IMG/VR virus record: IMGVR_UViG_3300009370_000007
Location: 32,001 to 96,000 of that record
Source of the DNA: a virus
Strand: one strand, 5' to 3'
Length of the DNA stretch: 64,000 nt
The notes beneath the pieces are model-generated. The model worked only from the letters and a program-made list of their open reading frames with translations. It made no database searches and was not told the DNA's origin. Position numbers and translations under genes: made by a program. Below, in pieces: positions 1,630-37,131 of this stretch (the first letter of the stretch is position 1; every line of letters starts with the position of its first letter).

Positions 1630-1639
1630 TTATGAACTC

Positions 1640-4764: not shown

Positions 4765-4817
4765 CTCTTATTACACTTTTTTATAATAATATAATAATCA
4801 ATCCAACAAATATAGAA

Positions 4818-12145: not shown

Positions 12146-12153
12146 TATTTATA
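12146..12153 (-). promoter_or_regulatory. T4-type late promoter TATAAATA for the neck/packaging cluster
   Basis: Exact consensus, intergenic, 34 nt upstream of the ATG at 12111. Confidence 0.85.
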
Positions 12154-12175: not shown

Positions 12176-12505
12176 TTATGAATTTTCAGTTGGATTATGA
12201 GAAGAGGTAAAGGGACTGGTATTCCCCCCCGGATGAAAGGTCGATAATGGAACTGCCTCCTTAACTTGTTTAACGTGCTGATACCATGTATTTGCAGTTT
12301 CAGTATCTGCCACAATTCTACCATCATTAATATCGTGCCAAAGTTTATCAAGCTGAACTCCAATAGAACCGTATAATGCTACTCTACTATTAATTTCTTG
12401 CTGTTTTGACACCCTATTTAATTGTTCGTCAGTAGTAGTAAATTTTCCAGGGATTCTTTTATGCGGAATAAGTGGATTTTTTATTTCTAATTTAAATTCT
12501 GCCAT
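12176..12505 (-). CDS. fibre-associated protein (tail fibre assembly chaperone-like)
   Basis: RVALYGSIGVQLDKLWHD...TWYQHVKQVKEAVP resembles the R..YPSI.DQLD.LWHD...W...I..VK...P motif of small proteins that follow phage fibre genes. Confidence 0.6.
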   Translation of the reverse strand: MAEFKLEIKNPLIPHKRIPGKFTTTDEQLNRVSKQQEINSRVALYGSIGVQLDKLWHDINDGRIVADTETANTWYQHVKQVKEAVPLSTFHPGGNTSPFTSSHNPTENS

Positions 12506-12520
12506 GTCATATTTTCCTTA

Positions 12521-12988
12521 TTATTGTGGATCGCTAATCATTTCGGTAACTAGCGGTGGAGGAGGCAATGTTGCAACTTGATATTGTGCCTTATGGTATC
12601 CATATTTTTGAAATCTAATTGTATAATTAGTTGTAGAAAACCCATTTACTGAAAATGCAAATGAAGTGTCTGTTGAGTTTGCTGTCCAGACAAATTGCTT
12701 ATCCACACTAACTGCTGTCCCAGGAGCAATTCCAGTAAATACTACTCTATCGTTTCCATCAGCAAATATTCCTTGCTTATCTTGAGCAATATCTTGATGT
12801 TGAATCTTATCAAATCCTATTGGTTGACCATTGGCTGTAACCACATATTGATTTAACAAAGCAGCCCTTCGGGCAACAATAAAAGCAATTCCCTTTTTTT
12901 GTAATTTTTCTATTTTTTCTGGAGTTGCATTATCAATTGAATATAAAATAAATCCAGTATTTCTATCATATACATAAATGTTGTCCAT
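12521..12988 (-). CDS. hypothetical structural protein
   Basis: ORF track 12521..13036. ATG 12988 (MDNIYVYDRNTGFIL) is preferred because it removes the overlap with the upstream gene. Beta-rich C-terminus. Confidence 0.65.
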   Translation of the reverse strand: MDNIYVYDRNTGFILYSIDNATPEKIEKLQKKGIAFIVARRAALLNQYVVTANGQPIGFDKIQHQDIAQDKQGIFADGNDRVVFTGIAPGTAVSVDKQFVWTANSTDTSFAFSVNGFSTTNYTIRFQKYGYHKAQYQVATLPPPPLVTEMISDPQ

Positions 12989-13008
12989 TGATACGTCTAC
13001 CTTTTCTC

Positions 13009-16000
13009 TTAATCGTGTAGTGGTTGACCCGTCCAAGGATCAATCGGCCAGTTTGGTCTTGCTGTTGTAACTCCTGCCTCATCTGTTTCAAAAGCACCAA
13101 GGGTTCCAGTAGCAGTTTGTGGTGTCGCGGGATCGTGAACAATTCCGGTTCCTTGATTAAATACTATATAGCTCACAAAGAAATAATCCCATTCTAATGG
13201 GTCAGGATACGGAGCCCCTTCACCGTCAACTTTGTCCATTGGATTAAAATGATTAGTTGAAATTGTGGTAACTTCAGTATTTGGAACAATTGCCTCCCTA
13301 TATGAAAGATACCCAGTTCGCTTACTGTCAATTTCAATCCAAGGACGATACCTAAAGTCATGTGTATTATTTATTCGAGCACCAGGGCCAACTGGAGTAT
13401 CAAATCCAGTAATTTTATTTGGATAAGTTGGTTGAATTTGATTATCAAATGTCATTGCACCATAGGCACCTCCCGATACTGATGGAACATCTTCAAAGCG
13501 CGGACTCTCAGTTGAAGCAACAGAGGCAGAGTAAGATTGAAAGTTAAATGGCTGATTTCTTCCTTCAAGTTCTCCCTTAAGGAACCACCACATACTACCA
13601 TATCCATGTCTGGTATCTTCTAGACTTGCTTTATACCATAATGGATACCCATTGGGCCATAATTCCATGTTTTGAAGACAATTTGAAAAAGTCATCCACG
13701 GGGAAATTTGAGAATAGTTTCCAGTATTCTGGGTGGTATAAGTATCACTATCCCACATCTGAGTAATGAAAAAATTCTTTAATGGAACATTATCCCATAG
13801 AAAATTATCCCAGCCACCCATATAGGAACGTGGCATATGTTCCTGCTCTGCTGGATTAATTGATTGGTTCGGTCCTTCTTCGGTCCCGCCAGTTCTCCAA
13901 CCTCCCGAGGAATCTCCGGCTGGAGCGTCGATGTTAACTCCCAGTTTCCATCCATCATTGTCTTCTGGATGCCCAAAATTACTTGAAAGATTTCCTCCTG
14001 GGGTCGCATTAAGAACTCCTGGGTGGTCCCCTTGACCGGATGCAGTTGAAGACCGATTATATTTCATTTCGGCACCACCATTACCATATTGACCAATCCA
14101 TGTTGGATCATTATGAGGGTTGCCCGATCCGCTTATAAATGACAAAACTGTACCACCAGTACCCCCTCCACTTGGAGTGCCAATAGGAAAATCCCAAGAT
14201 TCCGGCCCTGGTGGAAAGAAATTATAAATGTCACTTACATTAACAGAAGGAATATCACTTCGCGGAGATGTTGACGGCCAACGGCTAGCTGTGCTCGTGG
14301 CATTGCGCGCAGAACCTCTCGCAAAACCAAACATAGAAGACATCGGCATTTTGATTGGAACTGTGCTAATGCCACGATAATTATAGCTTCCTGTTTTTAA
14401 ATATTCTTCAAGCATGATCCTATGTTCCGGCGGCCAATATCGGACATCAGAAGGAGCCTCATTATCGAGCTGCATACCGTTCCGAGCCCCCGCCCACCCA
14501 GACCGAGGAAGATAATACTTATCGCGTCCATACAAAGTCCACATATAATTACCACCCTGATTATAAGAACCAACAAAATTGGGATCATGATAGTAATCAA
14601 AAATAGAACTTCCGGCTCCGGCTGGAAACTCTGACGAATTTTCTTGAAGAGCAAGATCATGATTAAATGCTCCATGACCAGTATGTTCTTTATAGTGTCT
14701 AGTAGGCCATTCCCCCGTAAAGGGGCCATCATCATGTGCCGTGCTTGCATCCATAATATTTAATCCATGATTTGGATACTCGCCCGAGCCTGCTGAACCG
14801 TCACCAGAATAATCAGATGCAATAATTCTTCCTCTGTCCCCTTTGCCAGTATTCCATGCATTATAATGAGCATTTGCATTGTTTGTAGAAATCATTGCAT
14901 TTGAAGTTGATTTGTCGTTCCAGGCCTGAATAATTAATTTATCATTATCAACATAATATATTAGCCCCCAAGTTTTTTGTTTCCAATAGCCCGTTCTACC
15001 GGGAGTCTTATATTGAGTTTTATTAATAGATTTATCAATTCTACGATCAATGCTTCCAAAGGGAGCATCCATTTGGGCATAACTTTGGGGAGTAAATGCA
15101 TTTAAATTTGAACGGTCGAGATTCAAATTAACGTGCCAACCATCTGGACGAACCAAGGTTTCCCATTGAGTTCTTGGATAATTATTTGGTTTTGACCGTG
15201 AGTTTATTGCGGCCCAGGGATGTTTTCCATAATGATCTCCTAGTTGATGCGTCTCTGGAGCCCCAGTAAGGTCTTCACCGACAATTTCTCCTGTGCCTAC
15301 TCCAAATGACATTCCATGAATTGTCCCATGTGGAAATTCGCTCCCTGGATAATCAGGACCAGAACTATCTTGGCCTTCATCTTCTCCTGAAATTGCAGCC
15401 ATATTACCATATTTAAATACATCTGTTATCGTTCCATCAGGATTTTTTTGCACCTTTCCTTGTTGAATATAATCATCTATAAATTTTAATGATTGATGTT
15501 CTGTGTTTATTGTTCCTCCAATTACATTTAGTTGCTTTATCCAAACAGAATCCATATATTTCAATATCTGTGAATTTGCAGAGTCGGCATAATTTGGATG
15601 AAAATGGCCTGAACTATTACATACTGCAAATTGTAACATTACCATAGGAATTATATTTTCTGTACCCGGAGTTTTAGATGCACTAAAATCTATAGATACA
15701 TTTGTACGATTTCCTGCATGAAAAACTGGATCTCTTCTATGCTTATATCCAGCCAAGATGGCGCTTCCTTGCTGAACAACAAACATAGAGCTTTCCACAT
15801 AGGTTGAACTGTCAAATATTAAATTTCCTGAATGTGCAATCTCATTATCAGTTACATCAATGCCCGGAGCAGAAACAAACAACCCCGCTGTTCCTTTTGA
15901 AGACAAAGAATTGTTTTCTACTATAATAGGAAAAAAATTTGTATTAAGCGTGAGCTGCCCGGGGATGTTAGGGTATACATCTACCCAAGGACCCTTTATC

Positions 16001-16221
16001 TCATCAAAACCAGTTGCAAGGACAATTCTTTCTTCAGGGTCGCCTGAACTAGATTGCCTAAAGTGAACTTCATGGCCTATTCTCCACCCGGCAGCCTGAT
16101 CTTTACTTATTGTCAAATAATATTTGATACGAGCCGGGGAGCCTACTGCATTATCATTAGATGCAATTGTTGATTCTGTAGGAAGGTCTTTATTTCCAAG
16201 TATTATTCTAGGGATTGCCAT
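13009..16221 (-). CDS. fibre-associated paralogue 3 (1070 aa)
   Basis: Shares RIILG, GLFVSAPGIDV, LIFDS, PMVMLQF and VSYIVF blocks with the two upstream genes; G/P/W/N-rich insertions. Confidence 0.7.
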   Translation of the reverse strand: MAIPRIILGNKDLPTESTIASNDNAVGSPARIKYYLTISKDQAAGWRIGHEVHFRQSSSGDPEERIVLATGFDEIKGPWVDVYPNIPGQLTLNTNFFPIIVENNSLSSKGTAGLFVSAPGIDVTDNEIAHSGNLIFDSSTYVESSMFVVQQGSAILAGYKHRRDPVFHAGNRTNVSIDFSASKTPGTENIIPMVMLQFAVCNSSGHFHPNYADSANSQILKYMDSVWIKQLNVIGGTINTEHQSLKFIDDYIQQGKVQKNPDGTITDVFKYGNMAAISGEDEGQDSSGPDYPGSEFPHGTIHGMSFGVGTGEIVGEDLTGAPETHQLGDHYGKHPWAAINSRSKPNNYPRTQWETLVRPDGWHVNLNLDRSNLNAFTPQSYAQMDAPFGSIDRRIDKSINKTQYKTPGRTGYWKQKTWGLIYYVDNDKLIIQAWNDKSTSNAMISTNNANAHYNAWNTGKGDRGRIIASDYSGDGSAGSGEYPNHGLNIMDASTAHDDGPFTGEWPTRHYKEHTGHGAFNHDLALQENSSEFPAGAGSSIFDYYHDPNFVGSYNQGGNYMWTLYGRDKYYLPRSGWAGARNGMQLDNEAPSDVRYWPPEHRIMLEEYLKTGSYNYRGISTVPIKMPMSSMFGFARGSARNATSTASRWPSTSPRSDIPSVNVSDIYNFFPPGPESWDFPIGTPSGGGTGGTVLSFISGSGNPHNDPTWIGQYGNGGAEMKYNRSSTASGQGDHPGVLNATPGGNLSSNFGHPEDNDGWKLGVNIDAPAGDSSGGWRTGGTEEGPNQSINPAEQEHMPRSYMGGWDNFLWDNVPLKNFFITQMWDSDTYTTQNTGNYSQISPWMTFSNCLQNMELWPNGYPLWYKASLEDTRHGYGSMWWFLKGELEGRNQPFNFQSYSASVASTESPRFEDVPSVSGGAYGAMTFDNQIQPTYPNKITGFDTPVGPGARINNTHDFRYRPWIEIDSKRTGYLSYREAIVPNTEVTTISTNHFNPMDKVDGEGAPYPDPLEWDYFFVSYIVFNQGTGIVHDPATPQTATGTLGAFETDEAGVTTARPNWPIDPWTGQPLHD

Positions 16222-16222
16222 T

Positions 16223-17272
16223 TTATCCTGATGCTCCCGGTTCTCTATAAATTATATATCCAAGTTGAAATTTACATTCCGTACTTGCATTATAAAAATA
16301 TAAATCAATTTGTGGTAGACTTCCATCTGTTGCAGTAGTATCAATTGAAGTTTGAGCCCAACAAAAATCACCGGGCATCTTCAATAAATGTGACGATCTT
16401 CTAAAAATGGGACTCGGCTGGCCGCCAACAGGAATAAAATCTCCGCCGCCTCCGGCCTCCCAGTTTTCCCAACCCGGAATTCTAATATGCGATACATCGG
16501 GGACGGTCGTGAAAACGGTAGAATCTCCTATTGAAAACAGAGCTTCCATTACCCCCCCAACAAAAACATCGAAACCACCAATATCAATATTTTCTTGTAT
16601 CATTCCAGGCCCGGCATCGGGGTCATATGGATCAAAGGTGTCGGTACTAAGTCCCCAATTTAATGCATCTTCTAAATTCTCCGGCGAAACCGGAGTTTGC
16701 CACCAAGCAAAATTAAATGCAGAAGGATCATTTGTGATACAAGTGTTACTTAAATGATATGGATGATCGTTTGGATATTGCCAAAATGCCTTTCGTCCTC
16801 CATGTTCCCATTCTCCAGTATGAAGTGGATTATATCCATTTGGAAGTCCATAACTATCTACACCATCTCCATCCCAAGAATCTGTTCCTTGTCCTCCCAT
16901 TGCATCATATACGTTTGAACCAAAATCTTTTCCTAATCCAGCAGCAATAAACCATTGAACCATTACTGGAGAATCTCCTCCGGTTCCAGGGCCAGAATGG
17001 CGAGGGGCTTCAATGTCAAGTCCTTCTATTTTAAGCTCAAACGGCGTACCAAGTTCCGGCGACACGTCAAGAAGAGCACTACCCGACGCCAAAACTTGAA
17101 GAAAACCAGATTGTGTTCCATCAGTAGAAAATAACAAGTCCGTTGCATTACAAGTCAAGGCATCAAAACCAGGCCTTGAAATATAAACTCCGGTATTATC
17201 TTGACGATGATACTCTTCGGGAAAATCTCCAGTAGATGATCCAGTATTTCCAATTAAAATTCTATTGGGCAT
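16223..17272 (-). CDS. fibre-associated paralogue 2 (349 aa)
   Basis: RILIG, GVYISRPGFDA, LLFST, PVMVQWF and LGYIIYR blocks; start overlaps the upstream stop. Confidence 0.7.
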   Translation of the reverse strand: MPNRILIGNTGSSTGDFPEEYHRQDNTGVYISRPGFDALTCNATDLLFSTDGTQSGFLQVLASGSALLDVSPELGTPFELKIEGLDIEAPRHSGPGTGGDSPVMVQWFIAAGLGKDFGSNVYDAMGGQGTDSWDGDGVDSYGLPNGYNPLHTGEWEHGGRKAFWQYPNDHPYHLSNTCITNDPSAFNFAWWQTPVSPENLEDALNWGLSTDTFDPYDPDAGPGMIQENIDIGGFDVFVGGVMEALFSIGDSTVFTTVPDVSHIRIPGWENWEAGGGGDFIPVGGQPSPIFRRSSHLLKMPGDFCWAQTSIDTTATDGSLPQIDLYFYNASTECKFQLGYIIYREPGASG

Positions 17273-20200
17273 TATACATCAATTCCTCCCATAGCATCTA
17301 AATTCGCCGGAATTCTTAATACATAATATCTATATCTACATTTTCCTGTTGATTCATTATTGTTAACTAAATCATAACTTTGATTTTGCTTCCACACTTC
17401 AGTCCCATCTACATTATCATCATCTCCAGAGAAATAATTTTCTTCATATTGACTGACTCCCCTTGGATGAAATATTCCCTCGGTTGCCCTACCAGGATAT
17501 TCCTGTTCTTCATCATTTCCCTGTACCCATCGAACCATTGAAGAATATCCTCCGGCTGGAGATACCCCCTTAAGTGTTGGTTCATATGCCATATTTACCA
17601 TTCCCCCAGGAGGCCAGAATTGAACATGACAACCATAACCAGTCCCAACTCCTAGTTCTGGCGTAGCAACTCGATATTCTGCTTCATTAAAAAAATAATA
17701 ATTCTCTCCCCAGGGGTCGGAAATGCCGTTAGGCATTAGTGGTTCATTACTACTATTGTCTTCAACTAGTATCTGCCGAGGATCTCCCCACCCCCAAAAT
17801 TTTGCAGTATTACCCACAGTATTATCTCCATCTCCTTCTGCATACCAGTTATTATTTTCATCATTATAACGGCCTCCACCTTTAGGACATATATCTGCAT
17901 TATTTTGGTGCAATCTTGCATTGCGACCATATAGCATATCATCTCTACCCCATGATACTTTACCATATCGCGTCATTCGACTAGAATACGGTTTCCATCC
18001 AGATTTAAGTGCTCCAACAGCAGGAACATTAACATTTTGCATTGTTCCCATAGTACCGAATGCTTCTGCAATAGAACTATCTAATTGTGCTTGTGGAGAT
18101 CCGTCGCCGGTCTCGGGGCCTCTCCAATCCGTAAATACCTCTGCTAGATATTGAGTATCTCTAGATGTGTAAACCGGCGTCTCAACTCCATCAATGAACT
18201 CTAAGCGGGTGATAATACTCTCATTAGGATCGCGCTGACGAGCCACATGAATAGATTCGCTATTCATTGGCTCTACTGGCCAAGTTTGGGCTCCTCCCCA
18301 ATCCCAAGGTGGTTTTGAATTTTGATAAAATCCAGCAGTTCCACCATAACTAAATCCGGGTAACATTTCATGACGCTGATCTCCTTCTGTTCTTCTGCCC
18401 GGAGCCACCACAGTTCCAGATAAATTTTTAAAGAAATTAGTTCCATACCAACCCCAATCACTAATATGTTCGGCAGTATAAATGCTAGGGGGCAATACTC
18501 CATTTGCAGTATGATCTTTTTGGTCCCACATTATTTCTAATGACGAGGGTTTCGGGGATTTCCCAGGAGCAGCATTTGGATCACCAGCAGCAAATTTTCT
18601 ATATGTTGGTCGAGTCCAAGTGCCATGTGATTGTTCTTCGTATCCTTCTCGGCCCAAAGCCCCTCTTGCAGTAATTTCAAATTTATCGCTTCCGGCTCTA
18701 ACATATGCAAATGTTCTCATTTTGAGTGTTTCTATAATCATCCATTTATAAACTGCTCCTGGGGAAACATTTATTTGAGCCAAATTTGGATACCCTTCTT
18801 GAGTTGTCTGATCGCCAACGCCGGAGTTGTCCTCTCCCATAGTGTCGGTTTTTGATACATAGTGTAAATCTCCCCAAAGACTAAAAAATCTTGGGCCCTC
18901 ATTTGGTTTTTCACCAGCCACGAAACCCATTGGAGATACCATACGACCTCCCAAATAATTAGAATCTCCCCATTTTCCGTGGCCCATTGTAGGTCCGTAT
19001 TCTATTCCAGTATAAAAATGATTTTGGCGGCTGCTTACGGACTGAGGAGGATATATTGGCCTCCCGTTTTCATCTACAGATCCGTAGTCATATCCTAATG
19101 CTTCGAGTTCGGCTTGCAACGCCGCGAAGAAGACTCCGTTCGTCCCGTCAATAGGAAATCCCATTGGATGATTCACAGTAGCTCCTGTTGGGACTTGTGG
19201 CCAGCCATCCCTATAGATTCCACGACTCCCTTCATCGCCCCAAATATTTTCAGAGGGATTCCGATTACCTCTATCGCCATTAATATTATCACCCCTAAGA
19301 AAAGGATTATCATAATCGGGTAATGGTTCTCCTATTGGATTATTATATTGAGATTCACTTCCAGAATGCACAGATGAACCACCAATAGGATACCCAGGCC
19401 TCCATGATCTTTGTTGTCCCCAAAACATAGGAGACATAAAAGAAAAATTTTGAGTTAGAGCTTGATGGCCGGTTTCAGATAAGTCCGTTTCGCCCCAAGG
19501 AGACATGGGATGGGACTCATATCTATGACCGTAGGCCGTGACGGACGAAGAGATATGCCTCCCCCCTTGAGGCATAAGACCAAACTGAGATGCTTGATTC
19601 AATCCCTCATGTACTGTTCCGGGTCGTGGATCAATTGGACTAAAGTGCGTGGAAGACGACCAAGGAGCGTCTGCAAGAACCTCATCGGGGTCTATCCCAG
19701 AATATCCATATGGTGGGGGCATTCCAACTGCATTCGGACCGAACCAACGACTACGAAAAACATCTGCAAAATATTCCGCTGTCACCCCGCTTGTATCTGA
19801 AGGCATCGCGCCGGCCGAGAGGGCCCCCCATGCGCCTGCTCCATAGGTATATAATTTATTATAGGGCGTGGCGTGTGAGCCAGAAGGATAACGGCCATCA
19901 TACTCAGTATCATAATCCCAACACGTTGGAGTTTCCAAGGCACCAGAAGGAAAAGAAACAGCACAAGGATGTTCATATATATCTTTAAAATTATTGCGAC
20001 CGACTACCGGGCTATTTAATCTGGTCCAGATACCAGAAACTTTCGGTGGGCGACCAGTACCATCCCAATTAGATAATGCAAGATTTCGACCGGCAATGTC
20101 ATTTTGATATTGCACATCACTCCACCAAGCATCATATCCGGGGTGCCAGGATTCCGATGGGGATGTCTCTCTTTGAGCTTTGTGATCGGGATAATCTGCT

Positions 20201-22524: not shown

Positions 22525-22543
22525 ACACTATATATTCCTATAA

Positions 22544-28500: not shown

Positions 28501-31500
28501 CTGTATCATTGGACACTGCCCAGACGGCACTATCATTTGCATGGTATCGGAATACCGCAAAATTATTTGCAGTATCACACCAAAAATCTCCATGAGGATC
28601 TGCAACAACTCGACCGTTTTGATCGTAACGAGGATCAGGTCCAAAATAATTCGGATCAGTTCCCCGATGATCGGCCAAGTGGGAAATCATTGCTCTATCT
28701 GTGAGGCCCCGGCTCCAGCTCATTCCCGGTCCTTCGTCCGAAGTAATGTAGGCGCTCGGCAATAGGGCTTCAACATCTGGATGAATTTCTTCTAATTGAA
28801 ATGCATCAAAATTTATATGGGATGCAATATGATCTATTTGAATCCCCGGAATAAGATGAGTTACATTCGCATTATGGCTCTTTGTCAAATCAATAATACA
28901 TGAATATCGGTGAAATGTCACTCCATCGGTTGAAGCTGGAAGGTCAACAGCAGAAACGCTATTTGCAAAAATATGAGAAGCCGATCCCACGTTTGAAGTA
29001 TACCAAGAGAATTTCAATCCATCTGTTATTGCTGTGTCTGATTTAACATATGCAGAATAAATCCATTTTCTTCCCTTTGGTACAAGAATTCCATATTTCC
29101 TAAAGGTTGCAATATCTGGGGTTGCAACTGGTTCAGCCGCTCTGGTACTTCTGGTATTTGCAAATAGAATTTGCATATAACTAGAAGTAGTGCCAGCTAT
29201 TGTCATCTTCAAACTGTTTTCGCCAATATGTCCTACTGTATCGTCAATTGTAACAGTAGTCGAGTATTGGGGAATACCAATGGCATATGGCGTATTTGAT
29301 GCCTTGCTAGTCTCTGTTATTAAATAATCATAATGCTGCTCATCAAACAAAGAGATTGGGCGAGGGAAGTAGTTCTTGGATCGGTTGGTTGCCTCTAGGT
29401 ATGCCTGTAGATAGAATGAACCCAGGCCAGAAATCTCATAGTCAGGCGGGCCTTCCCATCTAACCTTTTTTGTCCCTGGAGGAAATCCTGTGTCTGGATT
29501 AGTTGGATCGTAAGTAGTTTCTGAATAATTATTAACAAATGTTGACACGCTCCATGTATTCACACGATCAAAATCATCCAAAACAGAGGTATTAATCCAA
29601 ACATCATTATTGCCCAATGGAGTAGGTTCAGTCGGTTGAATGAATGTTTTAATATCTCGATCTGCCTTGGCTGCTGCATCAGCAGCATCTTGAATTCCTT
29701 TAAGTGCATCGGATACTGCCGAATAGGCTGTTGCATTAACAACATAAATTGATGCATCACGCATCTCATACCAACCCGATTTTGGATTGCTTTCGGCAAG
29801 TTTATTATTTGGATAACGGAATACATAGGGAGTGAGATTTGCCGTTCCAGTTCCTTGATATGTTCCAACAGCATTTTGATAATATCGGAAAAGCTGATTA
29901 TTATTTGAACCGGGTTCTGTATTAAGCCACATATCTCCATGAGGACGTTGATTCGGCTGACCCGTAGGAGTGGTTTCTGGAAGTGGTCCGTATCCTCTCC
30001 ACTTTGCACTAGAAGGATAAGTCGCGACTTGGATTTGAGCCGCTGAATTTGCAAAGAAGGTAACAACCTTACCAGAAGTTTCACTATAACTTTGTAGATA
30101 CATCAATCCAATTGCATTGTTCGGGGCTCGATGCCACGTTAATGTGTTGCCGCCTCCGTCTTCATGGTCAGTTGGGATCATCCCCTCCGAGTCGTGCGCT
30201 CCAGAGTTTGCAACAAAGATTGCACCGAGATTTGCTGTTCCATTTGGATTAACAGTTTTATTTTGATGAATCCAGACATCACCATTTCCTGTTGGCTTAA
30301 AATCATCAACATCTGCATTATGATTTTCAAAGAATGCAATGATTTCTCGATCTGCTGCTGCCTGGGCGGCGCTAGCAAGAATTTCTGCCGTATAAACTTT
30401 TTTATCACGAATATCATACCAACCGGAATTGCTGGAGGCTGTTGGAGTTTCTCCTGGTCCATGAATTGCAGCATAGGTATGAGCATGAACTCCTGTTCCT
30501 TGATATACTGCACTACTGTTTGCAAAGTATCGGAACATCATATTGTTGTTTGCACCGGCCTCAGTATTAATCCAGAAATCTCCATGTGGCTCTGGATTTG
30601 GATACCCCGAAGGAGTTATTTCTGGATTTGGACCCATAGGCCCTGGTGCTTCATTCCCATAGAATGCAACAAGTTTTCCGTCTGTAATCCTTCTTCCAAA
30701 GATGACTGCTACACCATCGGAAGGCTCTTTAAATTCAGATGCAGTTCTATTATCCCCAACCGCTTCTTCCAATTGGAATGCATCAAGATTTACAATATTG
30801 GCTGTTCGTTTTATTTGAATCCCTGGAATAATATGAGTAGAATTTGCGCTATCGCCACTCGTTAAATCAATAACACATTCATATCGAGTAAAAACTGTTT
30901 CATTATCCTGTTCTATAAGATCGAAAGCAGAGGAAGTAGCCGGGTATCCAGATGCGTCATACTCACCATTTAAGCCCAAAATATGAGAAGCCGAACCTAC
31001 ATTTGAGGTATACCAAGAAAATTTTAATCCACTTGCCAGGGCTTCATTCGATTTAACATAGGCAGAATAAATCCATTTTTTCCCCTTTGGAATAGGAATA
31101 CCATATTCTCTAAAGGTTGCAATATCTGGAGTTGCTCTAGCCAAAACATCACTTTCAGTATTTGCAAACAAAATTTGTAACATAGTACCGGAAGAACCAA
31201 CAGTTGTTAATTTTAGACTGTTTTCTCCAATATGTCCTACTGTATCATCAAGAGTAACTGAACCATAGGCATCGTTAAATGTACCAATGACATATGGTAT
31301 GTCTGATGCCTGTGAATCCTCTGTTATTAAATAGTCATAAGTCGGTGCATCAAATAACGAAAGTCCACGCGGCATAATATTTGTCCCACGATTAAATTTG
31401 CCCAGGACCCCAGCCGCGTAACTTTCGAGATACATTCTTCCGATGGCACTATCTGGAGCAGTATTCCAATAAAGTATTTGTCCATCGCGGGTGACGCCAG

Positions 31501-34500
31501 TATCAATTGAAGGATATTCTCCTGCCATTGAAAGTGTATTTGCAATAAAGATTGCATTCAGATTCTTTATTCCTGTTGAGTCAATAACCTTATCTGTTTG
31601 AATCCATACATCGCCATTTCCCGTTGGAGTAAATGTACTAACAACTGTATCGGAGTCATAGAAGAATGCAAGAATTTCTCTATCGGCAGCATATTGGGCA
31701 GCCTTGCCTGCACTAAGGGCGCTAAGTGAAAGCGCGTTAACAGAATCTATTGCAGAATAACGAACCTCATACCATCCAGATTTTGCCTCTGCATATTGAG
31801 ATGGTGGCACACCAAAGGTTCCCCCGGATGGAACATTCTTATATGGTGCTAATTGCTGACCATATTCTCCGTCTAATGTTCCGTGGTATCCTCCGTTATT
31901 ATAATAATATAAATCAGAAACAAGATTTGCAGAACCAGTTCCATCATACACAGCAGAATTATTTGCATGATAACGATATAGTGTATTATTGTTTGCAGTA
32001 TTATACCAAAGATCACCATGAGGGTCTGCATTAGGAATCTGAGTTTCCCCATCAGAAAAGACAGGACTTAAAGTTGGGTCAGGACCATTATAACGATACT
32101 TCTCTATGTCGGTCGGGGCAGATCCATCAATAGTCCTACGTCCATGTGGCTGAATATATGTAAAGACCTTGCCGTCAGAAAGCCCCTTTAAATTAGTAAG
32201 TCCTACAAAGCTGTCAGCAGACATATAGTCAGAGGGTTTGGGGTTTTGTGATTCTATAGAAACTTCTTCTAATTGAAATCCATCATAATATACCGTCTTT
32301 GAACCAGCAAGAGTTGGTTTTAATTTTAGTATAATTTTATTTAATTCGTCCTTTGGAGATACTGATAAATCAAGAATTACATATTGTCTCAACCAGCCCC
32401 GCAAACCTGCTGTAGTTAGATTGCTAATATTAGTGGCAGTATCAGTAACAACATTGGCATCTTTGGTATAATCTTTAGAGTTTTCGGCAACAATACCGGC
32501 AACCTCAGAAACGCCTCCAGCCGAATCCGTTTCTTTTGAAAAATATGAAAGTATCCACTTCTTTCCCTCTGGAATATCAATTCCATATTTTTCAAAAGTT
32601 GTAGTGTCAGGAGTTCCTGTTGCAGTTGTATTTGAAAATATAATATCATATGATCCGGCACTTCCCGATGCAACTTTTAGACTACGAGGACTGTTCCAAA
32701 ATTTTGTAGAATCTAAACTAACTGTCCAACTACCACTTGCATCATAAGTTATTGCAAAATCTTTTAGAGATCTACGATTTGCCGTATCTATAGAATAAGC
32801 AGCTTCGGGTGGAGTTCCCCCAAATAATGAAAGTTCAGTTGGAATATAATTCTTCGTTCCAGACTTGGCTTCTGCAAATAACTGAAGATAAAGATCCCCC
32901 ATGAATCCAGCCGATTGATTCCCCATAGTAGCATGGTCATTGGCATTATACCAAATTCCTGCGCTGCCAGCATCAGTATTTTGCCAACGAGAAACAATCC
33001 AACTATTTGCAGGGCCTCTATTCGTATCAATCCAGATGTCTCCATTGCCCGTTGCAATTGGTTCACTATCTGAGAAAAATCCTACAACAAAATGATCTGC
33101 TGATGCTGCCTTTAATAGACCTTGATTGGCTGTTAATTCAATTCTTTCTAATTGATTATTCGCAAACAAGGCAAGATTATATGCATTTGCAGCAAGGCTA
33201 TTTGCTGCATAGGCAACTGCATTTACCGCAAGAATAGATAAGTCTTTTCCTTCATACCAACCAGTCTTAGAAGAAGCTCTATTAAATTCATTTGTATAAT
33301 AAACCGTTTGGGCCCAGGTTCCTGCATTGTCCTCGCCGAGCCCCCAAGTTTTGGAGAATGATGTATTTGTTAAATATACAAATGCAGCAGTATTATTAGA
33401 CGTATTAAACCAAAGGTCGCCTCTTGGATTTGGATTAGCTGTTCCATCTTCCGATATTGCAACATTAGGTCCATAGGTAGGGGCGGGTTGATGTGGGTAT
33501 GGATACTGATGATCCCAAAAAATTAATGATCTTCGATCTGCAACATTTTGGGCAGCATAGGATTGTAGATAAATTCGACCAAAGGCATCGTTTGGAGCAT
33601 GACGCCATGCAAGTGCTGTGGTATGATCGGCTGGTGTATTGGCAAATCCACCAATAGAATTTTGCCAACGATGAATTGCCTTTGTGCTTAGAGTTCCATC
33701 GGGAAGAACGGTTTTGTCATCGCCACCAGTATTTGCATTAATCCAAACATCACCATATTGGGCAGTCAGATGTTTCCATGAACCAGCATAGAAGGTATCT
33801 GTATCTTGTGCGTCGGTATAAATGGTAACTTCATGGAGGCTTGCATTTGCAGCAAGACGTTGGGCTTCTCTTGCTGCTGCGTCGGCATTGGAAATGTCAA
33901 TTCCCAGCTTAATAAGTTCCTCTTCAAGTGTAAGACTTCCAACAGAACTTCCAGATACTTGGAGAGCCGAGTTGGCAATAATGTTAACATCTATTTCACA
34001 CCATGCACTCGGATCATCGTCTATCGTTCCGCTATAGGCTTCGGCTCCTCCATCGGCCCCAATGCCGGGAGTTCCTACAAGAATATATGAGGCATTACTC
34101 TGAAAACCTAATGTTGCCGTGTCTGTATTTCCGGCACCAAAGACAGTATTCGATGCACCACAACGTACCATTGCTTCTAATAATTTGCCACCCTTTGTTG
34201 TTGGGGTTCCATAACGATTATCTCTTAGTTCACCTGAACCAATAATAAAAACATAACAATTTGGCCCTAACAGATTCAAGTCGTCTGCCAACTTGTCGGC
34301 ATTCGTATGATTATCTGGAGTTGTTATATTATAACGCCAACGCAGAGGGGTGACTCCCAGTGCTGCGGGAACTGTTTGAATTCCATTTTCAGTTGAAGAA
34401 GCTGGTGCGTTCGGCATCATTGTGGTATCACCATCATCAATCGTTGCACCACGGAAACCACCAACTACTCGATCCCAAATATATACGTCAAACTCTCCTT

Positions 34501-36865
34501 GGTCTGCCAGTTTAGTGGCCCCGGTATCAACCCAATATCTAGCGGTGGCGCTTTCAGCAGCTTCAGGATACAAACCAAAACCATAGGTTGGTATACTAGG
34601 ATCTGCAAATGGAGCCATATTAGCTGGATCATCAAAGCCGTTGGTTATATTTTTTCCGCCTTGAGAAATAAGTCTAAAGGAATAATGATCTTTTTTCCAT
34701 GAAGGATCTTCAACTTCGCGAAGCCTTAAAGATTCAACATCGAGATGCTGGTCTGTTTGATGAAAAGCATTGGTAATTTGCAGACCAACACTCATCATTT
34801 TGGTACCCGATGTTGGATAATAACGATAGAAATATTGAGTATGTCCAGATGCAGTTAGAGTAACTTCATCAGCAGTTATTACCCGATTTCCAGTTACAGT
34901 ATTTGCAGAACCACCACCATAAGAAATATGAGTTTTAGTTTTATCATCTAAATCAGCATCATATTCCACAATCCGCAATATGGGCGCTGTAACATCCGAC
35001 CCGGAGCTGACCTTTGCACTATATGTAATTGCCCAATGTGTTTCTCCGGGTTTTAATGCAATGGCAGGAGTCACAACACCAACGGTCTTATCTGACACAG
35101 AGGCAAATGCAGTATTTGAAATTCGTAGAACTCGATTTCCTCTGAATCTTGGATCTGGATTTACATATCCATAGACATCTTCACTATATGATGATGTTGC
35201 ATCATATCTAAATGCCTCAAGTCCAGCGGGAACCCATCTTCGCTTGTTTCCATGCTGCGCGAACTTCCCTATATTAAAATTCCAATTCTTGAATGCCATT
35301 TCACCAGCAGTTGTCAGATCAGTTCCTTGGGTATCATCTAAAAATTGTTCTTCAATCCAATCCAGAGAAGCACTAAAATTGGAAATAGACGCGCTTTCAA
35401 CATGAGTTGCATTTGTAGAAATAGTACCTAAAGCAAGATATTCTTCTGGGGAGGGAAGAACAGTCCATTCATCTGCCCCGCTAACATACATCCACCCAAG
35501 CTCAAGTTCGTTAATAGCCATTTTGAAATCATCACCATGACCGTGATTTCCAATACTATCGGAATCATAAGGATTCGTTGTATCGGATCTCCAAATAACC
35601 CACGCATCCGTATTTCCGGCAATTGAATTAACAACCCCGGGAATAACATTCTGCCGAGTCCCGTCAACGCCAACAGTGAATCCGTTTTTTGTCGCAGAAG
35701 GTTCGCCATCTGAACCAAAGGAATGAACCCAAAGATATTTGGCAGTATCCACATTAAATTTACTATGGTTTAGTTTAAATCCTAATGCGGGAGAATTAAT
35801 ATCAACTGTGGACGTAACATTTTCCAGTACATTAATTCGACTTCCATGAGAACTTAAAGCAGTCTGAAGAGATCCGGCGGGGCCACCGCCGCCGCGAATA
35901 ATAGGTTGATTATCACCATCATAGATAATAATTCCACCCGCCTGTATATTTCCATCCTTATCAATATGCCATCCCGAGCCGGGAGTAGATTGATTCCACG
36001 AAATGCTATGAATTACATTTGCAACCTTTTGATTTGTGACAGTCAGGTCTTTAATGAATGCACCAAAAATAGAGCCTTCGTTATCAATTCTTAAACTTGG
36101 ATGATTGAAATCAAATATAATATTATCATATTTAATTGAACTTATGCCTGTTGCCAAACTAGTCTCAGGTGTTGGATAGGTTAGTGTTCCATCTGTTGCA
36201 TCTGTTCCCGTTAACCCACGACAAGGATCAAGTTCAATTCTAATTCCAATAATTTCTTTATCTTTAGGAGTGACAGCCCTCCAATTAATAGTCTGCCACA
36301 CATTAAGAGTGTGGTCGGGAGCAATTGGAGCAACAAAAGTAGTGGAGCCCTTTGAGTCTTTATTTGCTGCATCTCGATAGGAAAGCGTAATTGAAATTCC
36401 AGGGGTTCCATCTGTATATGAATCTAATTTATAACTATAACTTCCCGTAAGGAATATATTCTGATAGAGTGGTTCATGATTTTCGCCCTGGCCATCAAAG
36501 TCAATATTACGATACCAATAATTTGTAGATCCTGTATTTTCAAAATCTACACTATAGGCACCAGTAAAGGCGTCTGTACTTCTGGACCAATTTGATCCGA
36601 CAGCCGTCCATCCATCGGCAGGCGAAGAGGGGTCTGCCCATTGATTAAATCGAGGATTAAATCCATAGATGGTTGCAGAATCTTGCTGGGTGTCTGTATC
36701 CCTATCAACAATGAGAGCATCTGCGGTGATAGTGCCAGCAACATGAAAGGTAGAGTTAGGAGATGCCGTATGAATACCAACACGGCCATCATACCCAACA
36801 GAAATTGATGGTTTGGTTGCCTCAAAGGTGGATCTAAATTGTGTATTACCAATAAATTGCGGCAA
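22544..36865 (-). CDS. giant modular tail fibre/adhesin (4773 aa) with CBM-like repeats, ILEI-like, LamG-like and GpJ/DUF1983-like motifs
   Basis: TTG start with AAGGA upstream. Contains VGIHTASPNSTFHVAG (fibre motif), AFIKDLTVTNQKVANVIHS...GWHIDKDG, repeated GD(V/I/L/F)W motifs, repeated KW(I/L)xSAYVK...FQLEE domains, and GHWKFD...FDEARYYDRVLT (LamG-like). Confidence 0.8.
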   Translation of the reverse strand: MPQFIGNTQFRSTFEATKPSISVGYDGRVGIHTASPNSTFHVAGTITADALIVDRDTDTQQDSATIYGFNPRFNQWADPSSPADGWTAVGSNWSRSTDAFTGAYSVDFENTGSTNYWYRNIDFDGQGENHEPLYQNIFLTGSYSYKLDSYTDGTPGISITLSYRDAANKDSKGSTTFVAPIAPDHTLNVWQTINWRAVTPKDKEIIGIRIELDPCRGLTGTDATDGTLTYPTPETSLATGISSIKYDNIIFDFNHPSLRIDNEGSIFGAFIKDLTVTNQKVANVIHSISWNQSTPGSGWHIDKDGNIQAGGIIIYDGDNQPIIRGGGGPAGSLQTALSSHGSRINVLENVTSTVDINSPALGFKLNHSKFNVDTAKYLWVHSFGSDGEPSATKNGFTVGVDGTRQNVIPGVVNSIAGNTDAWVIWRSDTTNPYDSDSIGNHGHGDDFKMAINELELGWMYVSGADEWTVLPSPEEYLALGTISTNATHVESASISNFSASLDWIEEQFLDDTQGTDLTTAGEMAFKNWNFNIGKFAQHGNKRRWVPAGLEAFRYDATSSYSEDVYGYVNPDPRFRGNRVLRISNTAFASVSDKTVGVVTPAIALKPGETHWAITYSAKVSSGSDVTAPILRIVEYDADLDDKTKTHISYGGGSANTVTGNRVITADEVTLTASGHTQYFYRYYPTSGTKMMSVGLQITNAFHQTDQHLDVESLRLREVEDPSWKKDHYSFRLISQGGKNITNGFDDPANMAPFADPSIPTYGFGLYPEAAESATARYWVDTGATKLADQGEFDVYIWDRVVGGFRGATIDDGDTTMMPNAPASSTENGIQTVPAALGVTPLRWRYNITTPDNHTNADKLADDLNLLGPNCYVFIIGSGELRDNRYGTPTTKGGKLLEAMVRCGASNTVFGAGNTDTATLGFQSNASYILVGTPGIGADGGAEAYSGTIDDDPSAWCEIDVNIIANSALQVSGSSVGSLTLEEELIKLGIDISNADAAAREAQRLAANASLHEVTIYTDAQDTDTFYAGSWKHLTAQYGDVWINANTGGDDKTVLPDGTLSTKAIHRWQNSIGGFANTPADHTTALAWRHAPNDAFGRIYLQSYAAQNVADRRSLIFWDHQYPYPHQPAPTYGPNVAISEDGTANPNPRGDLWFNTSNNTAAFVYLTNTSFSKTWGLGEDNAGTWAQTVYYTNEFNRASSKTGWYEGKDLSILAVNAVAYAANSLAANAYNLALFANNQLERIELTANQGLLKAASADHFVVGFFSDSEPIATGNGDIWIDTNRGPANSWIVSRWQNTDAGSAGIWYNANDHATMGNQSAGFMGDLYLQLFAEAKSGTKNYIPTELSLFGGTPPEAAYSIDTANRRSLKDFAITYDASGSWTVSLDSTKFWNSPRSLKVASGSAGSYDIIFSNTTATGTPDTTTFEKYGIDIPEGKKWILSYFSKETDSAGGVSEVAGIVAENSKDYTKDANVVTDTATNISNLTTAGLRGWLRQYVILDLSVSPKDELNKIILKLKPTLAGSKTVYYDGFQLEEVSIESQNPKPSDYMSADSFVGLTNLKGLSDGKVFTYIQPHGRRTIDGSAPTDIEKYRYNGPDPTLSPVFSDGETQIPNADPHGDLWYNTANNNTLYRYHANNSAVYDGTGSANLVSDLYYYNNGGYHGTLDGEYGQQLAPYKNVPSGGTFGVPPSQYAEAKSGWYEVRYSAIDSVNALSLSALSAGKAAQYAADREILAFFYDSDTVVSTFTPTGNGDVWIQTDKVIDSTGIKNLNAIFIANTLSMAGEYPSIDTGVTRDGQILYWNTAPDSAIGRMYLESYAAGVLGKFNRGTNIMPRGLSLFDAPTYDYLITEDSQASDIPYVIGTFNDAYGSVTLDDTVGHIGENSLKLTTVGSSGTMLQILFANTESDVLARATPDIATFREYGIPIPKGKKWIYSAYVKSNEALASGLKFSWYTSNVGSASHILGLNGEYDASGYPATSSAFDLIEQDNETVFTRYECVIDLTSGDSANSTHIIPGIQIKRTANIVNLDAFQLEEAVGDNRTASEFKEPSDGVAVIFGRRITDGKLVAFYGNEAPGPMGPNPEITPSGYPNPEPHGDFWINTEAGANNNMMFRYFANSSAVYQGTGVHAHTYAAIHGPGETPTASSNSGWYDIRDKKVYTAEILASAAQAAADREIIAFFENHNADVDDFKPTGNGDVWIHQNKTVNPNGTANLGAIFVANSGAHDSEGMIPTDHEDGGGNTLTWHRAPNNAIGLMYLQSYSETSGKVVTFFANSAAQIQVATYPSSAKWRGYGPLPETTPTGQPNQRPHGDMWLNTEPGSNNNQLFRYYQNAVGTYQGTGTANLTPYVFRYPNNKLAESNPKSGWYEMRDASIYVVNATAYSAVSDALKGIQDAADAAAKADRDIKTFIQPTEPTPLGNNDVWINTSVLDDFDRVNTWSVSTFVNNYSETTYDPTNPDTGFPPGTKKVRWEGPPDYEISGLGSFYLQAYLEATNRSKNYFPRPISLFDEQHYDYLITETSKASNTPYAIGIPQYSTTVTIDDTVGHIGENSLKMTIAGTTSSYMQILFANTRSTRAAEPVATPDIATFRKYGILVPKGRKWIYSAYVKSDTAITDGLKFSWYTSNVGSASHIFANSVSAVDLPASTDGVTFHRYSCIIDLTKSHNANVTHLIPGIQIDHIASHINFDAFQLEEIHPDVEALLPSAYITSDEGPGMSWSRGLTDRAMISHLADHRGTDPNYFGPDPRYDQNGRVVADPHGDFWCDTANNFAVFRYHANDSAVWAVSNDTGTANLGCEAFYYVSATNPFPGADLAVGQKFPKSTKGHSGWYEIRDQTVLEIERNLSGNAGRLETAQTSLQSVTAALTTGDGLDSLLGPLGSGEDHSGGLIERLKQVEILDDNEIVAFIQPTNPYPNVANGDIWVDTGRYPTVNSWSISRWQNTSATIPPGPDGYWANPNTYTYDIGAGSTPGYAPLGAFGKFFLTNYLASLGSNKNYMPRGYSLFDSRDDDYSIVGALTHAPATAIQRPYPITHQALELVPDSGTEVSSIVTSVGFDDTQESPVGGRTLKVVVTANASPNYGVALSFANTTNPMLQGTDSRKRFGSDFAINIPKASKWLFSAYVKTDVLPQVGHGVRATFTGANSSTIDGSLDAFHGGYVWGLEYSDVSLSQLRQGPDAVNEWKRLSWLFDLSGDIDEYTNDTGSHNLYANTFTRIIPRLDIRQHLSATPGAITNWHFAGLQLEQVAGDTSYAGASALEPTFFMAPDEGPSINWNRGLSDGAVRIYEGMSHERGGNWNPWGPDPTKTQSGIANPAPDGDRWLNTDLNLEFVYQANSTNRTSNSIYMFANTSSDAKSGWYLVGTIQPPAAPDSDGLRGHWKFDGAFKEGALKRGGPAFGGTTKVYNGTKGLVANVFHDYAGDMGPALVRVTGTNQNGYANVVNKLHRSTDAIIGHSFTSNAEINSSTDGAGVIVDLIDEDEPLWGQDTKERTLAVWFKPIAYDDIATESAIWDAGYTNYGRFGNANKTGRSYATLEQKDLWVEYSSNDRRANGHYSNAMFWEAGGGPEHYIGFGTSPGQRGTFTGTGAIKQNTWNFVVTTWDFNKSKQSFFIYNVDDGLVYANTNTTITVSQPAPSVNVHLGGIASGFGTSKEMVANFDEARYYDRVLTVPEIQGLFITHPGDQDLDLGGFVYEDGDTIDRMKPFQPGATDGRHLYLSVRNKRGPGFSQVNDQYAYLHGYNQDAQAAPVNGFIQTREETTDEFGDDLTVHKLTEAKHGPIKVGITGTKDDGYILYQTNAISGTAGVFSPATGGESRHFAFAQPTARRANSSGGWSTWRYDDGEGDWHYIYPNDKEILVIGDARVSKDPDFDVIDIWSLAPASPRTIRNSSDVIITDVDQPGVSSNWARELSSSGGAGGGIVYEDETTATILDRLADGDKYLHQPHWTRGARHGKDGEDSWIEFRANQHPTFVNNEEDYNNHLWATSIHIYWGQNITDFTTGIRDGVTKYQYAIIAKADSPGATWTNVAGVFTGLDTDYPTVSSVEDPKSWANSRPLLLANTGPDAVFFPTIEQQDPTNAKYAGRNPEGISLPTIDPVGQFVGTLRIFVGNTWWTSAAETDGIQDSDGGAPQHWHIASDTSDSRTIPSIHEVEIWRGSAGRDSYAGDFAGRPETDNSLIGDVSVNYASVIEALGGTGSEIADMIADTGDVQITDTMIEGLSGEKINAGTLTSQSIGSGAILTGHLEVLGGYNNLIFDPDFIHGYLQYPSPGVHRVTGVDSGLTESIGYGIEEQIRAHCAYDRWANGHNDGQCTANVTFDYSHPDISGYLNPAAGNIITANLHWTVAEVNRLNGGAGTHWSLIDYQDGADHITHPDAYSSDGGTVTLSADNSKMFMSVWLPPGYHSNGGSVGWWYESDWETGSQSDWEADRARVAISHNKVMFGTHGQAQNPVKLMGEGYVVGGSGRNEMRYTIGPTSNVGTDVTNPANRRLVSPANTVFSFSIWARKLDSQDHGTLYHDGTPKPPQAGNTDRYNHPGYRSVDPGPDDKNIWGPDHWDTDTDRYGALQDGAGTNRTGKANNIIRACAEFFAADGTRCGKIVGPWTEPFHQPSAGLSHVSGSVYSAGTTDADPLTKNFGRYKYGWREINFTGNGAAVEYGRSGHEINRVWSIRDRGIISPDQIPQTVRPEISYMTVGVEFSLGARVGTWGTVGDNISPNAQGAHYFLAGPKLARAVGTLDVDEINAGSITLGDFKSKYGIGTSGKMTLDGENSRIIVSD
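28968..29355. repeat. intragenic direct repeat, copy A
   Basis: Near-identical blocks with 30978-31365, e.g. aaaatatgagaagccga, atttaacata(t/g)gcagaataaatccatttt, taaaggttgcaatatctgg, ccaatatgtcctactgtatc. Offset about 2010 nt. Confidence 0.85.
30978..31365. repeat. intragenic direct repeat, copy B
   Basis: Partner of 28968-29355; both encode DDTVGHIGENSLK...ATPDIATFRxYG...KWIYSAYVKS...GLKFSWYTSNVGSASHI. Confidence 0.85.
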
Positions 36866-36876: not shown

Positions 36877-37131
36877 TTATAGCTTATCAATAATAGTCTG
36901 AAGAAGAGACTTGACTTCCCCCATATCGTTCTTCAAAATATTAATTTCGTCTTTCATACTATTTATTTCATTTTCAGCAGTTTTGCTACGCTCGAATTGC
37001 TTGCGGCGAATTAAATGTTGTTTAAATTTATTTAAATCAGAAGGAAGGAGAGCATTGTTAGTTGGATCTTTAACAAAAGAAGAATTCTCTGTTTTTAAAA
37101 GCCGATCTTCATCTAGTTCATCATTTCTCAT
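36877..37131 (-). CDS. small coiled-coil protein following the DUF4815 gene
   Basis: FVKDPTNNALL...EINILKNDMGEVKSLLQTII; motif and position match the small gene that follows DUF4815 genes in T4-like environmental phages. Confidence 0.75.
   Translation of the reverse strand: MRNDELDEDRLLKTENSSFVKDPTNNALLPSDLNKFKQHLIRRKQFERSKTAENEINSMKDEINILKNDMGEVKSLLQTIIDKL

Follow-up and report, generated by a model that had tools for sequence, protein, structure and literature searches.

The long tail fibres of T4 are encoded by gp34-gp35-gp36-gp37-gp38, a single late transcription unit in which a large proximal protein is followed by smaller distal or connector proteins and by small assembly factors. In marine T4-like phages of the Kyanoviridae type, represented here by Synechococcus phage S-SSM4 and Pelagibacter phage HTVC008M, the genes gp6, gp7 and gp8 are followed by a giant DUF4815 gene, a gene for a virion protein of about 75-85 amino acids (aa), a slot of fibre genes and then gp13 to gp20, and large structural genes are normal in this group. 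A comparable order is found in Staphylococcus phage 812, where wedge, arm scaffold, arm segment and tripod are followed by RBP1 and RBP2, and these two receptor-binding proteins hang separately on a gp7-like arm (PMC13433997). The J-like fibre of the F2 pyocin offers another point of reference, since its C-terminus is predicted to be a beta-prism like that of the lambda central fibre. This C-terminus lacks a receptor-binding domain, and genes further downstream probably supply the binding module, as they do in T5 (PMC13455828). Here we describe a stretch of 64,000 nucleotides (the window) from IMG/VR virus record IMGVR_UViG_3300009370_000007, comprising bases 32001-96000 of a 107-kb contig from an uncultured marine T4-like myophage with an estimated completeness of 59%. 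Between gp8 and gp13 the window carries g4773, a gene for a fibre of 4773 residues, followed by three genes for large proteins (g1750, g349 and g1070) and by small genes. We found that the g4773 region is a new, very large form of a cassette already described in marine T4-like phages, their variable fibre cassette. We further consider it fairly probable that the stretch is a lineage-specific host-recognition cassette of a Kyanoviridae-type myophage, with the fibre and its downstream subunits playing the parts proposed below.

A giant fibre cassette in the variable slot of a T4-type module

Pfam and PHROG scans recognised a T4-type morphogenesis module, and the minus strand carries every gene of the region. 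Sheath, tube, gp5, gp25, gp6 and gp7 are all present, which defines a contractile-tail module of T4 type around the fibre gene. The portal is at most 59% identical to that of any cultured phage, the best matches being cyanomyophages such as S-SSM4. The order of the module is:

First part, minus strand: gp48-like, gp53, phrog_350 tail protein, gp5 (two open reading frames, ORFs), gp25, gp6, gp7, gp8
Middle, minus strand: g2875, g84, g4773, then ORFs of 1750, 349, 1070, 171, 109 and 118 aa
Last part, minus strand: gp13, gp14, gp15, gp16, gp17, gp18, gp19, gp20

The genes that frame the slot, and the fibre gene itself, are:

45790-47496, minus strand: gp8
37141-45768, minus strand: g2875, DUF4815 protein of 2875 aa, the conserved upstream partner of the fibre slot, tripod-like
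36877-37131, minus strand: g84, virion structural protein of 84 aa (phrog_473, E 1e-12)
22544-36865, minus strand: g4773, giant modular fibre of 4773 aa
11755-12111, minus strand: g118, conserved small structural protein closing the slot upstream of gp13 (phrog_1084 and phrog_3304, E ~1e-18)
10980-11750, minus strand: gp13

The interval from gp8 to gp13 measured about 34 kb rather than the 25 kb or so given in a first-pass annotation of the same DNA, which had omitted the DUF4815 gene and the 84-aa gene with which the interval opens. The same annotation had seen no gp9, gp10, gp11 or wac there, and this was borne out, as no Pfam match to them fell on the ORFs of the interval. T4_gp9_10_N (PF07880), GP11 (PF08677) and Fibritin_C (PF07921) gave no match at E<=0.1 in six frames of the 107-kb contig; the control genomes yielded no positives for PF07880 and PF08677, so that sensitivity for these two is unverified, and no gp12 model was searched.

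The upstream partner g2875 matches PF16075 (E 4e-60) and phrog_358 (E 2e-268), and its N-terminal part matches PDB chain 9euf_0 ('DUF4815 / ORF65', a 1152-aa chain in the phage 812 baseplate entries) at E 5e-28. Its homologues are CYXG_00064 of S-SSM4 and gp057 of HTVC008M. Those of g84, namely CYXG_00065 of S-SSM4, gp058 of HTVC008M and genes in the metagenome loci L004, L005 and L009, always lie between the DUF4815 gene and the fibre. The Herelleviridae (Staphylococcus phage 812 and Listeria phage A511) likewise have gp6-like, gp7-like and gp8-like genes, a DUF4815 protein and then receptor-binding proteins, and sandwiches of the carbohydrate-binding module (CBM) 16/61 type occur in both groups. 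They differ from our locus in that g2875 is 2.5 times longer and the receptor-binding proteins are unrelated in sequence; their hosts are Firmicutes, whereas marine Gram-negatives or cyanobacteria are our best guess here. Together, the T4-type frame and the likeness to phage 812 identify the apparatus as the known Kyanoviridae / A511-812 type of baseplate periphery, with the cassette in its variable slot.

We then compared the slot in cultured relatives. In S-SSM4, gp8 is followed by a 2448-aa DUF4815 homologue, an 80-aa homologue of g84, a 69-aa ORF, a 1931-aa structural protein and gp13. HTVC008M has a 2001-aa DUF4815 protein, a 72-aa homologue and five unrelated fibre-like genes before gp13, with the g118 homologue sitting among the five. 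The order of the flanking genes is therefore the same as in the window, but the fibre genes in the slot are unrelated: the single protein of S-SSM4 has another N-terminus, the five of HTVC008M are different again, and tblastn found no relative of g4773, g1750, g349 or g1070 in cultured phages. Likewise, neither megablast nor tblastn matched either terminus of the fibre, or g1070, to any of 50,697 phage genomes. Since conserved flanks enclose unrelated fibres in S-SSM4 and HTVC008M, we take the slot to be the variable host-recognition slot of the family. Upstream of its baseplate genes, S-SSM4 (L002, 1-13586) has, besides its own fibre, a gene for a 'virion structural protein' of 6932 aa, so structural proteins of several thousand residues are not exceptional in this phage group.

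Uncultured relatives reproduce the beginning of the arrangement. In eight marine metagenome loci a DUF4815 gene is followed by an 84-aa gene, wherever the frame is intact, and by a giant ORF whose N-terminus is 33-37% identical to that of g4773 and whose super-repeats are homologous; the C-terminal parts of their DUF4815 proteins are 26-34% identical to that of g2875. All eight contigs end inside the giant gene, and the gene order of relatives downstream of it is known solely from L011, an IMG/VR fragment. A search of viral contigs for related loci with g349, the fibre N-terminus and the database proteins P0003, P0039 and P0040 found none, and only P0041 led to a locus, L011. This fragment carries, in order, a relative of g1070 (38% identical), a g171-like ORF (45%), a g109-like ORF (44%), g118 (86%), gp13 (82%) and gp14 (82%). 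Genes of the cassette are thus 38-45% identical where g118, gp13 and gp14 are 82-86% identical, that is, the cassette changes faster than the structural genes that flank it. It also lies directly downstream of the DUF4815 and phrog_473 proteins and upstream of gp13, the position of a variable cassette.

Architecture of the giant fibre

The size and coordinates first given for the 4773-aa ORF and the tight packing of the genes behind it were confirmed. Its start codon is TTG, preceded by AAGGA, and its relatives begin alike, with MP[KQR]F. When 1.8 billion representatives were searched exhaustively by phmmer with the first 519 residues, no more than 37 relatives were found. The following parts were recognised:

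36101-36865, minus strand: residues 1-255, conserved N-terminal anchor, with a fibre repeat (1-60) and a CBM-like beta-sandwich (61-255)
35873-36073, minus strand: residues 265-331, distal motif of J-type central fibres (PF09327 / DUF1983)
26771-33748, minus strand: residues ~1040-3365, five to six tandem super-repeats of 215-557 aa each
25853-26257, minus strand: residues 3537-3671, LamG / concanavalin-like lectin domain (PF13385 Laminin_G_3)
22547-24358, minus strand: residues 4170-4773, distal end, with an I-x-A-G segment (4170-4246), a variable domain (4247-4730) and the terminal 43 residues (4731-4773)

Residues 1-60 are a short fibre repeat of V-G-I-x-T type. AlphaFold2 modelled residues 61-255 with a predicted local distance difference test (pLDDT) score of 70-87, and the best Foldseek matches of this sandwich were CBM16, CBM61, CBM4 and phage tailspike sandwiches (E ~1e-5). 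Residues 1-330 are a conserved head specific to this family.

Chunked self-BLAST showed the super-repeats of the body to be 25-56% identical to one another, with E down to 2e-81. Each contains two GD-x-W-x-[ND]-T knots and a helical Ala-rich stretch, and four contain a CBM-like sandwich ending in FQLEE. Long internal repeats, in a metagenomic contig that is 59% complete, raise the question of whether misassembly produced the giant ORF or the gene order, the more so as one database relative of g349 (P0038) looks chimeric. We regard this as highly improbable. The frame is open over 14.3 kb, the repeats are too diverged for assembly collapse, independent contigs from several projects have the same order with homologous giant ORFs, and the C-terminus and the downstream genes are confirmed by P0040 and L011.

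The LamG domain behind the repeats was matched at E 1.7e-6 (28.7 bits against a cut-off of 27.6). One gene of the baseplate wedge carries a domain related to those of the fibre body:

47521-52308, minus strand: gp7, 1595 aa, extended with PD40/TolB-type propeller repeats

The CBM-like domain of gp7 and the CBM of the super-repeats are 31% identical over 185 aa, so this domain is common to the fibre and the baseplate wedge. Such modules would also suit an accessory adhesin in place of a primary receptor-binding fibre: a long whisker or decoration, rich in lectin modules, by which the virion is held to cell surfaces or polysaccharide matrices. In that case host specificity would reside in the three downstream proteins or in the propeller/CBM extension of gp7. 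The many-fold repetition of CBM-like and LamG modules, the same kind of CBM in gp7, which would spread glycan binding over the baseplate, and the very large S-SSM4 protein that exists besides a fibre are all in keeping with this role. However, g4773 fills the exact fibre slot of S-SSM4 and HTVC008M and has a variable distal domain, and we judge an accessory role improbable.

At the distal end, two fibre segments of I-N-A-G type bracket a domain of about 480 aa. Residues 4173-4244 weakly match phrog_19445, 'tail tip protein Tal' (E 0.001), as does the homologous protein P0040 (E 4e-5). When g4773 was compared with P0040 (800 aa), the sole distal-end homologue found, the flanks were 55-62% identical and the insert 15-45%, which is the pattern of a variable binding domain set into a structural fibre. 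The last 13 residues, TLDGENSRIIVSD, recur nearly unchanged at the C-termini of relatives of very different length; the equivalent endings are LLDGLNSRIVISD in the 533-aa P0003 and IIDGENSRIVITD in P0040, and those of P0018 and P0010 are similar.

A connector module common with J-type central fibres

The first-pass annotation had noted that peptide motifs near both ends of the fibre resemble the DUF1983 region of GpJ-like central fibres, and had read the region as a receptor-binding system of siphovirus type grafted onto a contractile baseplate. The motifs are present as quoted, at residues 268-303, 4219 and 4734-4773. PF09327 (Phage_Tail_Tip, formerly DUF1983) matched residues 265-311 at 21.9 bits, against a curated cut-off of 22; the match spans profile positions 81-125 of 139, and the first two thirds of the domain are absent. 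Twelve of the 37 phmmer relatives match only residues ~260-340 of the fibre, and when ten of these twelve were searched with Pfam, eight passed the PF09327 cut-off. A hidden Markov model (HMM) built from the twelve proteins, with the query left out, scored residues 265-331 at 63 bits (E 3e-20). Profile A4 placed the motif on residues 1144-1185 of 1204 in 25vf_A, the F2-pyocin J-like fibre, and on residues 1098-1134 of 1172 in 9l9p_S. This link to the PDB was obtained through a bridging sequence or profile, and direct phmmer searches of the PDB with the motif segment and with the C-terminal 573 aa gave chance matches only. The PHROG family 'central tail fiber J' (phrog_31) reached only E 0.023 on the N-proximal motif. 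AlphaFold2 gave the motif region a pLDDT below 50, as is expected when the structure to be modelled is an interleaved trimer.

From these profile scores we conclude that residues 265-331 share true homology with the distal part of PF09327 in J-type central fibres. Given the account of the F2 pyocin in PMC13455828, the likeness first noted is real and carries the functional connotation intended. This holds for the N-proximal motif; the look-alike at the C-terminus scored 0-3 bits against the motif profiles, which is not significant.

The wider comparison with J-type fibres (lambda J; PyoF10 of the F2 pyocin, 25vf; 9l9p_S; 9ze4_N) showed that likeness goes little beyond this segment of about 65 residues. 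The I-x-A-x-I repeats of g4773 and the ending of the protein resemble such fibres. In contrast, the hub domain PF13550 (Phage-tail_3) and FNIII-A_GpJ (PF24801) were not found in the whole protein at E<=0.01 or in nine segments at E<=1, and there was no Pfam match to an fn3 domain in g4773. The same Pfam search recovered hub and FNIII-A in P0025 (1741 aa), which is a complete J-like protein and carries fn3 as well as Phage-tail_3 and FNIII-A_GpJ. The remaining nine of the ten relatives showed no further family, and the carriers of the motif are mostly ordinary fibres of 360-800 aa without J hubs, so the motif is a mobile fibre module and not a siphovirus marker. Moreover, g4773 does not lie beside tape-measure or gpM/gpL/K/I genes, it carries the motif, 1.4% of its length, in an N-proximal position, and the tail of the phage is contractile, with a gp5-type spike on its axis.

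By its domain content, then, g4773 is not a GpJ; it has a connector module in common with the GpJ family. An adsorption apparatus of siphovirus type is not what this locus encodes, as the likeness amounts to some 65 of 4773 residues, N-proximal, without J hub, FN3 or tail-tip context. Nor has a siphovirus tip been grafted on, because gp6, gp7, gp8, the DUF4815 protein and the small coiled-coil protein make up a conserved baseplate periphery of Kyanoviridae type.

Three downstream proteins with a common N-terminal signature

The downstream ORFs lie on the minus strand and are packed, with gaps of -1 to 20 nt. The three large ones are:

17272-22524, minus strand: g1750, 1750 aa, Gly/Pro/Trp-rich, with the signature at residues 5-24 and its next element only near residue ~596
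16223-17272, minus strand: g349, 349 aa, the smallest signature member
13009-16221, minus strand: g1070, 1070 aa, the third signature member, with the signature at residues 5-9 and 113-158

Pfam and PHROG gave no family for any of the three. They had been described as paralogues, and this was only partly sustained. As wholes they could not be aligned: similarity over the whole length was absent by BLASTP, and did not exceed a z of 1.8 by local alignment or 3 bits by HMM. What they have in common is an ordered N-terminal signature of about 50 residues and their composition (Gly 11-13%, Pro 7%, Trp 3%). R[IV][IL][LI]G stands at residue 4-5 of each, and a scan of the contig in six frames found G[LVI][WYF][IV]S.PG at three places, one in each downstream protein; these patterns were derived post hoc. 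With shallow profiles, hhalign aligned g349 to g1070 over 47 columns (P 0.003) and to g1750 over 16 columns (P 0.03). We read this as a putative docking module of about 50 residues at the N-terminus, common to three bodies that would be unrelated or diverged beyond recognition.

Relatives are very rare. Among 5.8 billion clusters, g1070 has one, P0041 (49%), and g349 has two, P0038 and P0039 (49%). P0038 is identical to g349 in residues 1-273, after which comes an unrelated tail of 91 residues; it is probably a chimeric metagenome contig and not a variant gene. Residues 121-200 of g349 (16673-16912, minus strand) are 92% identical to P0039, its sole true homologue, compared with about 60% overall; this block has motifs rich in His, Glu and Trp and may be a binding or catalytic site. 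Look-ups of g349 and g1070 in the ESM Atlas gave no lead, and the g349 model was poor. The three had also been considered as analogues of gp10, gp11 and gp12, given their sizes (large, small, large) and a weak I-x-I-G-N ... T-G-D likeness at the N-terminus; this candidate was dropped, being without profile support.

The first-pass annotation had the three proteins cap the fibre trimer, with the two small genes behind them as chaperone or adaptor. In its fuller form this explanation holds that the fibre ends in a J-type beta-prism without a receptor-binding domain of its own and is capped in the manner of T5 pb4/pb5, or in the way suggested for PyoF10 with PyoF11/12; the R-[IV]-[IL]-[LI]-G strand of the downstream proteins would complete a split terminal motif, and g171 and g109 would be chaperones or adaptors. 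Several features accord with it. The terminal 43 residues are the best conserved distal part and close the sequence of family members whether these are short or long. The J-like proteins of F pyocins end with a homologous motif that is thought to receive a separately encoded binding module (PMC13455828). Other fibres close the motif with ...D-x-x-G-x-x-R-x-x-x-G, which would here be divided between the fibre end and the start of the next gene, and the genes are tightly packed and probably co-transcribed. Set against this, the terminal segment, alone and joined to each downstream N-terminus, scored 0-0.5 bits against the motif profiles, the significant PF09327 copy is N-proximal and not terminal, and the variable distal domain looks like the fibre's own binding domain. 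We therefore find capping doubtful. A bolder version of the split motif appears unlikely to us: the fibre would end just before the last strand of its terminal J-type motif, each downstream protein would begin with the missing strand and the docking module, and one or a mixture of interchangeable Gly/Pro/Trp-rich heads would plug onto the 4773-residue stalk by strand complementation. When the fibre end was joined to each downstream start, the product aligned as this idea predicts, with a score that was not significant.

Small genes and transcription signals

Two small genes follow the large ones:

12521-12988, minus strand: g171, probably 155 aa from the ATG at 12988, candidate accessory or assembly factor, fast-evolving
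12176-12505, minus strand: g109, 109 aa, candidate accessory or assembly factor, fast-evolving (phrog_1787, function unknown, E 2e-12)

The ATG at 12988 was preferred for g171 because the L011 homologue uses the equivalent codon and because the ribosome-binding site ahead of this ATG is the better one. No Pfam or PHROG family was found for g171, and g109 has weak relatives in 11 cyanophage records. The L011 identities indicate that both genes diverge with the cassette and that g118 is conserved like the neck genes. Divergence as fast as that of g1070 fits the accessory role suggested for the pair; membership of a chaperone family did not hold, since Caudo_TAP, gp38 and gp57A gave no relevant Pfam match at E<=10. 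Position and co-divergence would fit a cognate accessory role. The general plan of a large protein followed by smaller proteins and small genes recalls the long tail fibre operon of T4. The locus differs from it in that no sequence similarity was found and the small genes do not match the T4 assembly factors; it also lies at gp8-gp13, where T4 has gp9-12 and wac, and not at the T4 fibre locus.

The gene beyond them, g118, is 44% identical to gp061 of HTVC008M, and its family occurs in 99 phage records, from cyanophages and from Pelagibacter, Methylophilales and Limnohabitans phages. The conserved downstream border of the variable slot is formed by g118. Its relatives are annotated variously as 'L-shaped tail fiber protein assembly' or 'tail fiber'.

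The T4-late-promoter-like sequence TATAAATA occurs on the coding strand at 12146-12153, 45939-45946, 54557-54564 and 7397-7404, just upstream of the starts of g118, g2875, gp25 and gp18, respectively. The first of these lies between g109 and g118, 35 nt upstream of g118. There is no TATAAATA on the minus strand between 45939 and 12153, the block from g2875 to g109. Scans for sigma-70 promoters and terminators were at chance level.

Other neighbouring genes

The gp5 spike is split into two ORFs (54583-56625, minus strand), one for an OB-fold part of 288 aa and one for a part of 384 aa whose match is to the central section of phrog_430; Pfam found a lysozyme domain in neither. Downstream of the portal gene, at 1640-3013 on the minus strand, lies a 457-aa collagen-repeat protein resembling a tail fibre (PF01391 E 5e-28; phrog_5073), followed by a 405-aa ORF for which no family matched.

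A model for the cassette

The arrangement that we favour is a host-recognition cassette built around g4773, which is presumably a trimeric fibre anchored to the baseplate. Its N-terminal ~330 residues, comprising repeat, CBM-like sandwich and beta-prism connector, would most likely be fixed to the periphery formed by the DUF4815 and 84-aa proteins. The body may act as a chain of lectin-like modules (CBM-like sandwiches and LamG) that makes multivalent, low-affinity contact with glycans along a very long stalk, and the ~480-aa variable domain, set in the terminal fibre motif, would be the fibre's own distal domain for specific binding. The proteins g1750, g349 and g1070 would be further, fast-evolving receptor-binding subunits that dock through their common N-terminal module, with g171 and g109 as their cognate accessory factors. 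A precedent is the baseplate of phage 812, where a DUF4815-type protein and separate RBPs are attached to the gp7-like arm. Where the three would dock is a separate matter. By analogy with RBP1 and RBP2 of phage 812 they might attach to the baseplate arm, which we propose tentatively; docking on the conserved C-terminus of the fibre is also conceivable but rather doubtful.

Several points weigh against the model. The phage is uncultured and its contig incomplete (59%). The gene order, homologies, repeats, domain folds and conservation pattern were observed directly, but the locus is known from its genes alone, and from these we infer that the fibre is trimeric, where it attaches, that it binds glycans and what the downstream proteins do. 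The AlphaFold2 model of the super-repeat was poor (pLDDT 41), and because models of the body are poor, the CBM calls for the repeats rest on weak matches to PF21340 (E 0.001-0.06) and on their likeness to the domain in gp7. In statistical terms, the homology of g1750, g349 and g1070 to one another is weak. The count of TATAAATA over the 64-kb window equals chance (6 versus 6.0). Finally, our equation of 9euf_0 with the tripod protein of phage 812 was inferred from copy number, chain counts and entry lists, PMC13433997 being silent on the matter.

Significance

The locus does not overturn current views of baseplate architecture. Little is understood of how the abundant marine T4-like phages recognise their hosts, and most of their giant structural genes lack annotation; the locus provides a dissected example with a conserved anchor, a J-type connector, a lectin-like array, a variable tip and rapidly evolving partner genes. 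It also defines a small family of giant fibres, the 37 relatives found, and offers three near-orphan downstream proteins as candidates for new receptor-binding folds. If the split motif were true, this contractile-tailed phage would have a modular, swappable tip, and its heads would represent an undescribed family of receptor-binding proteins with one or two relatives each in the 5.8 billion protein clusters. The J-type connector, being common with the fibres of siphoviruses and tailocins, shows that fibre modules cross morphotype boundaries.

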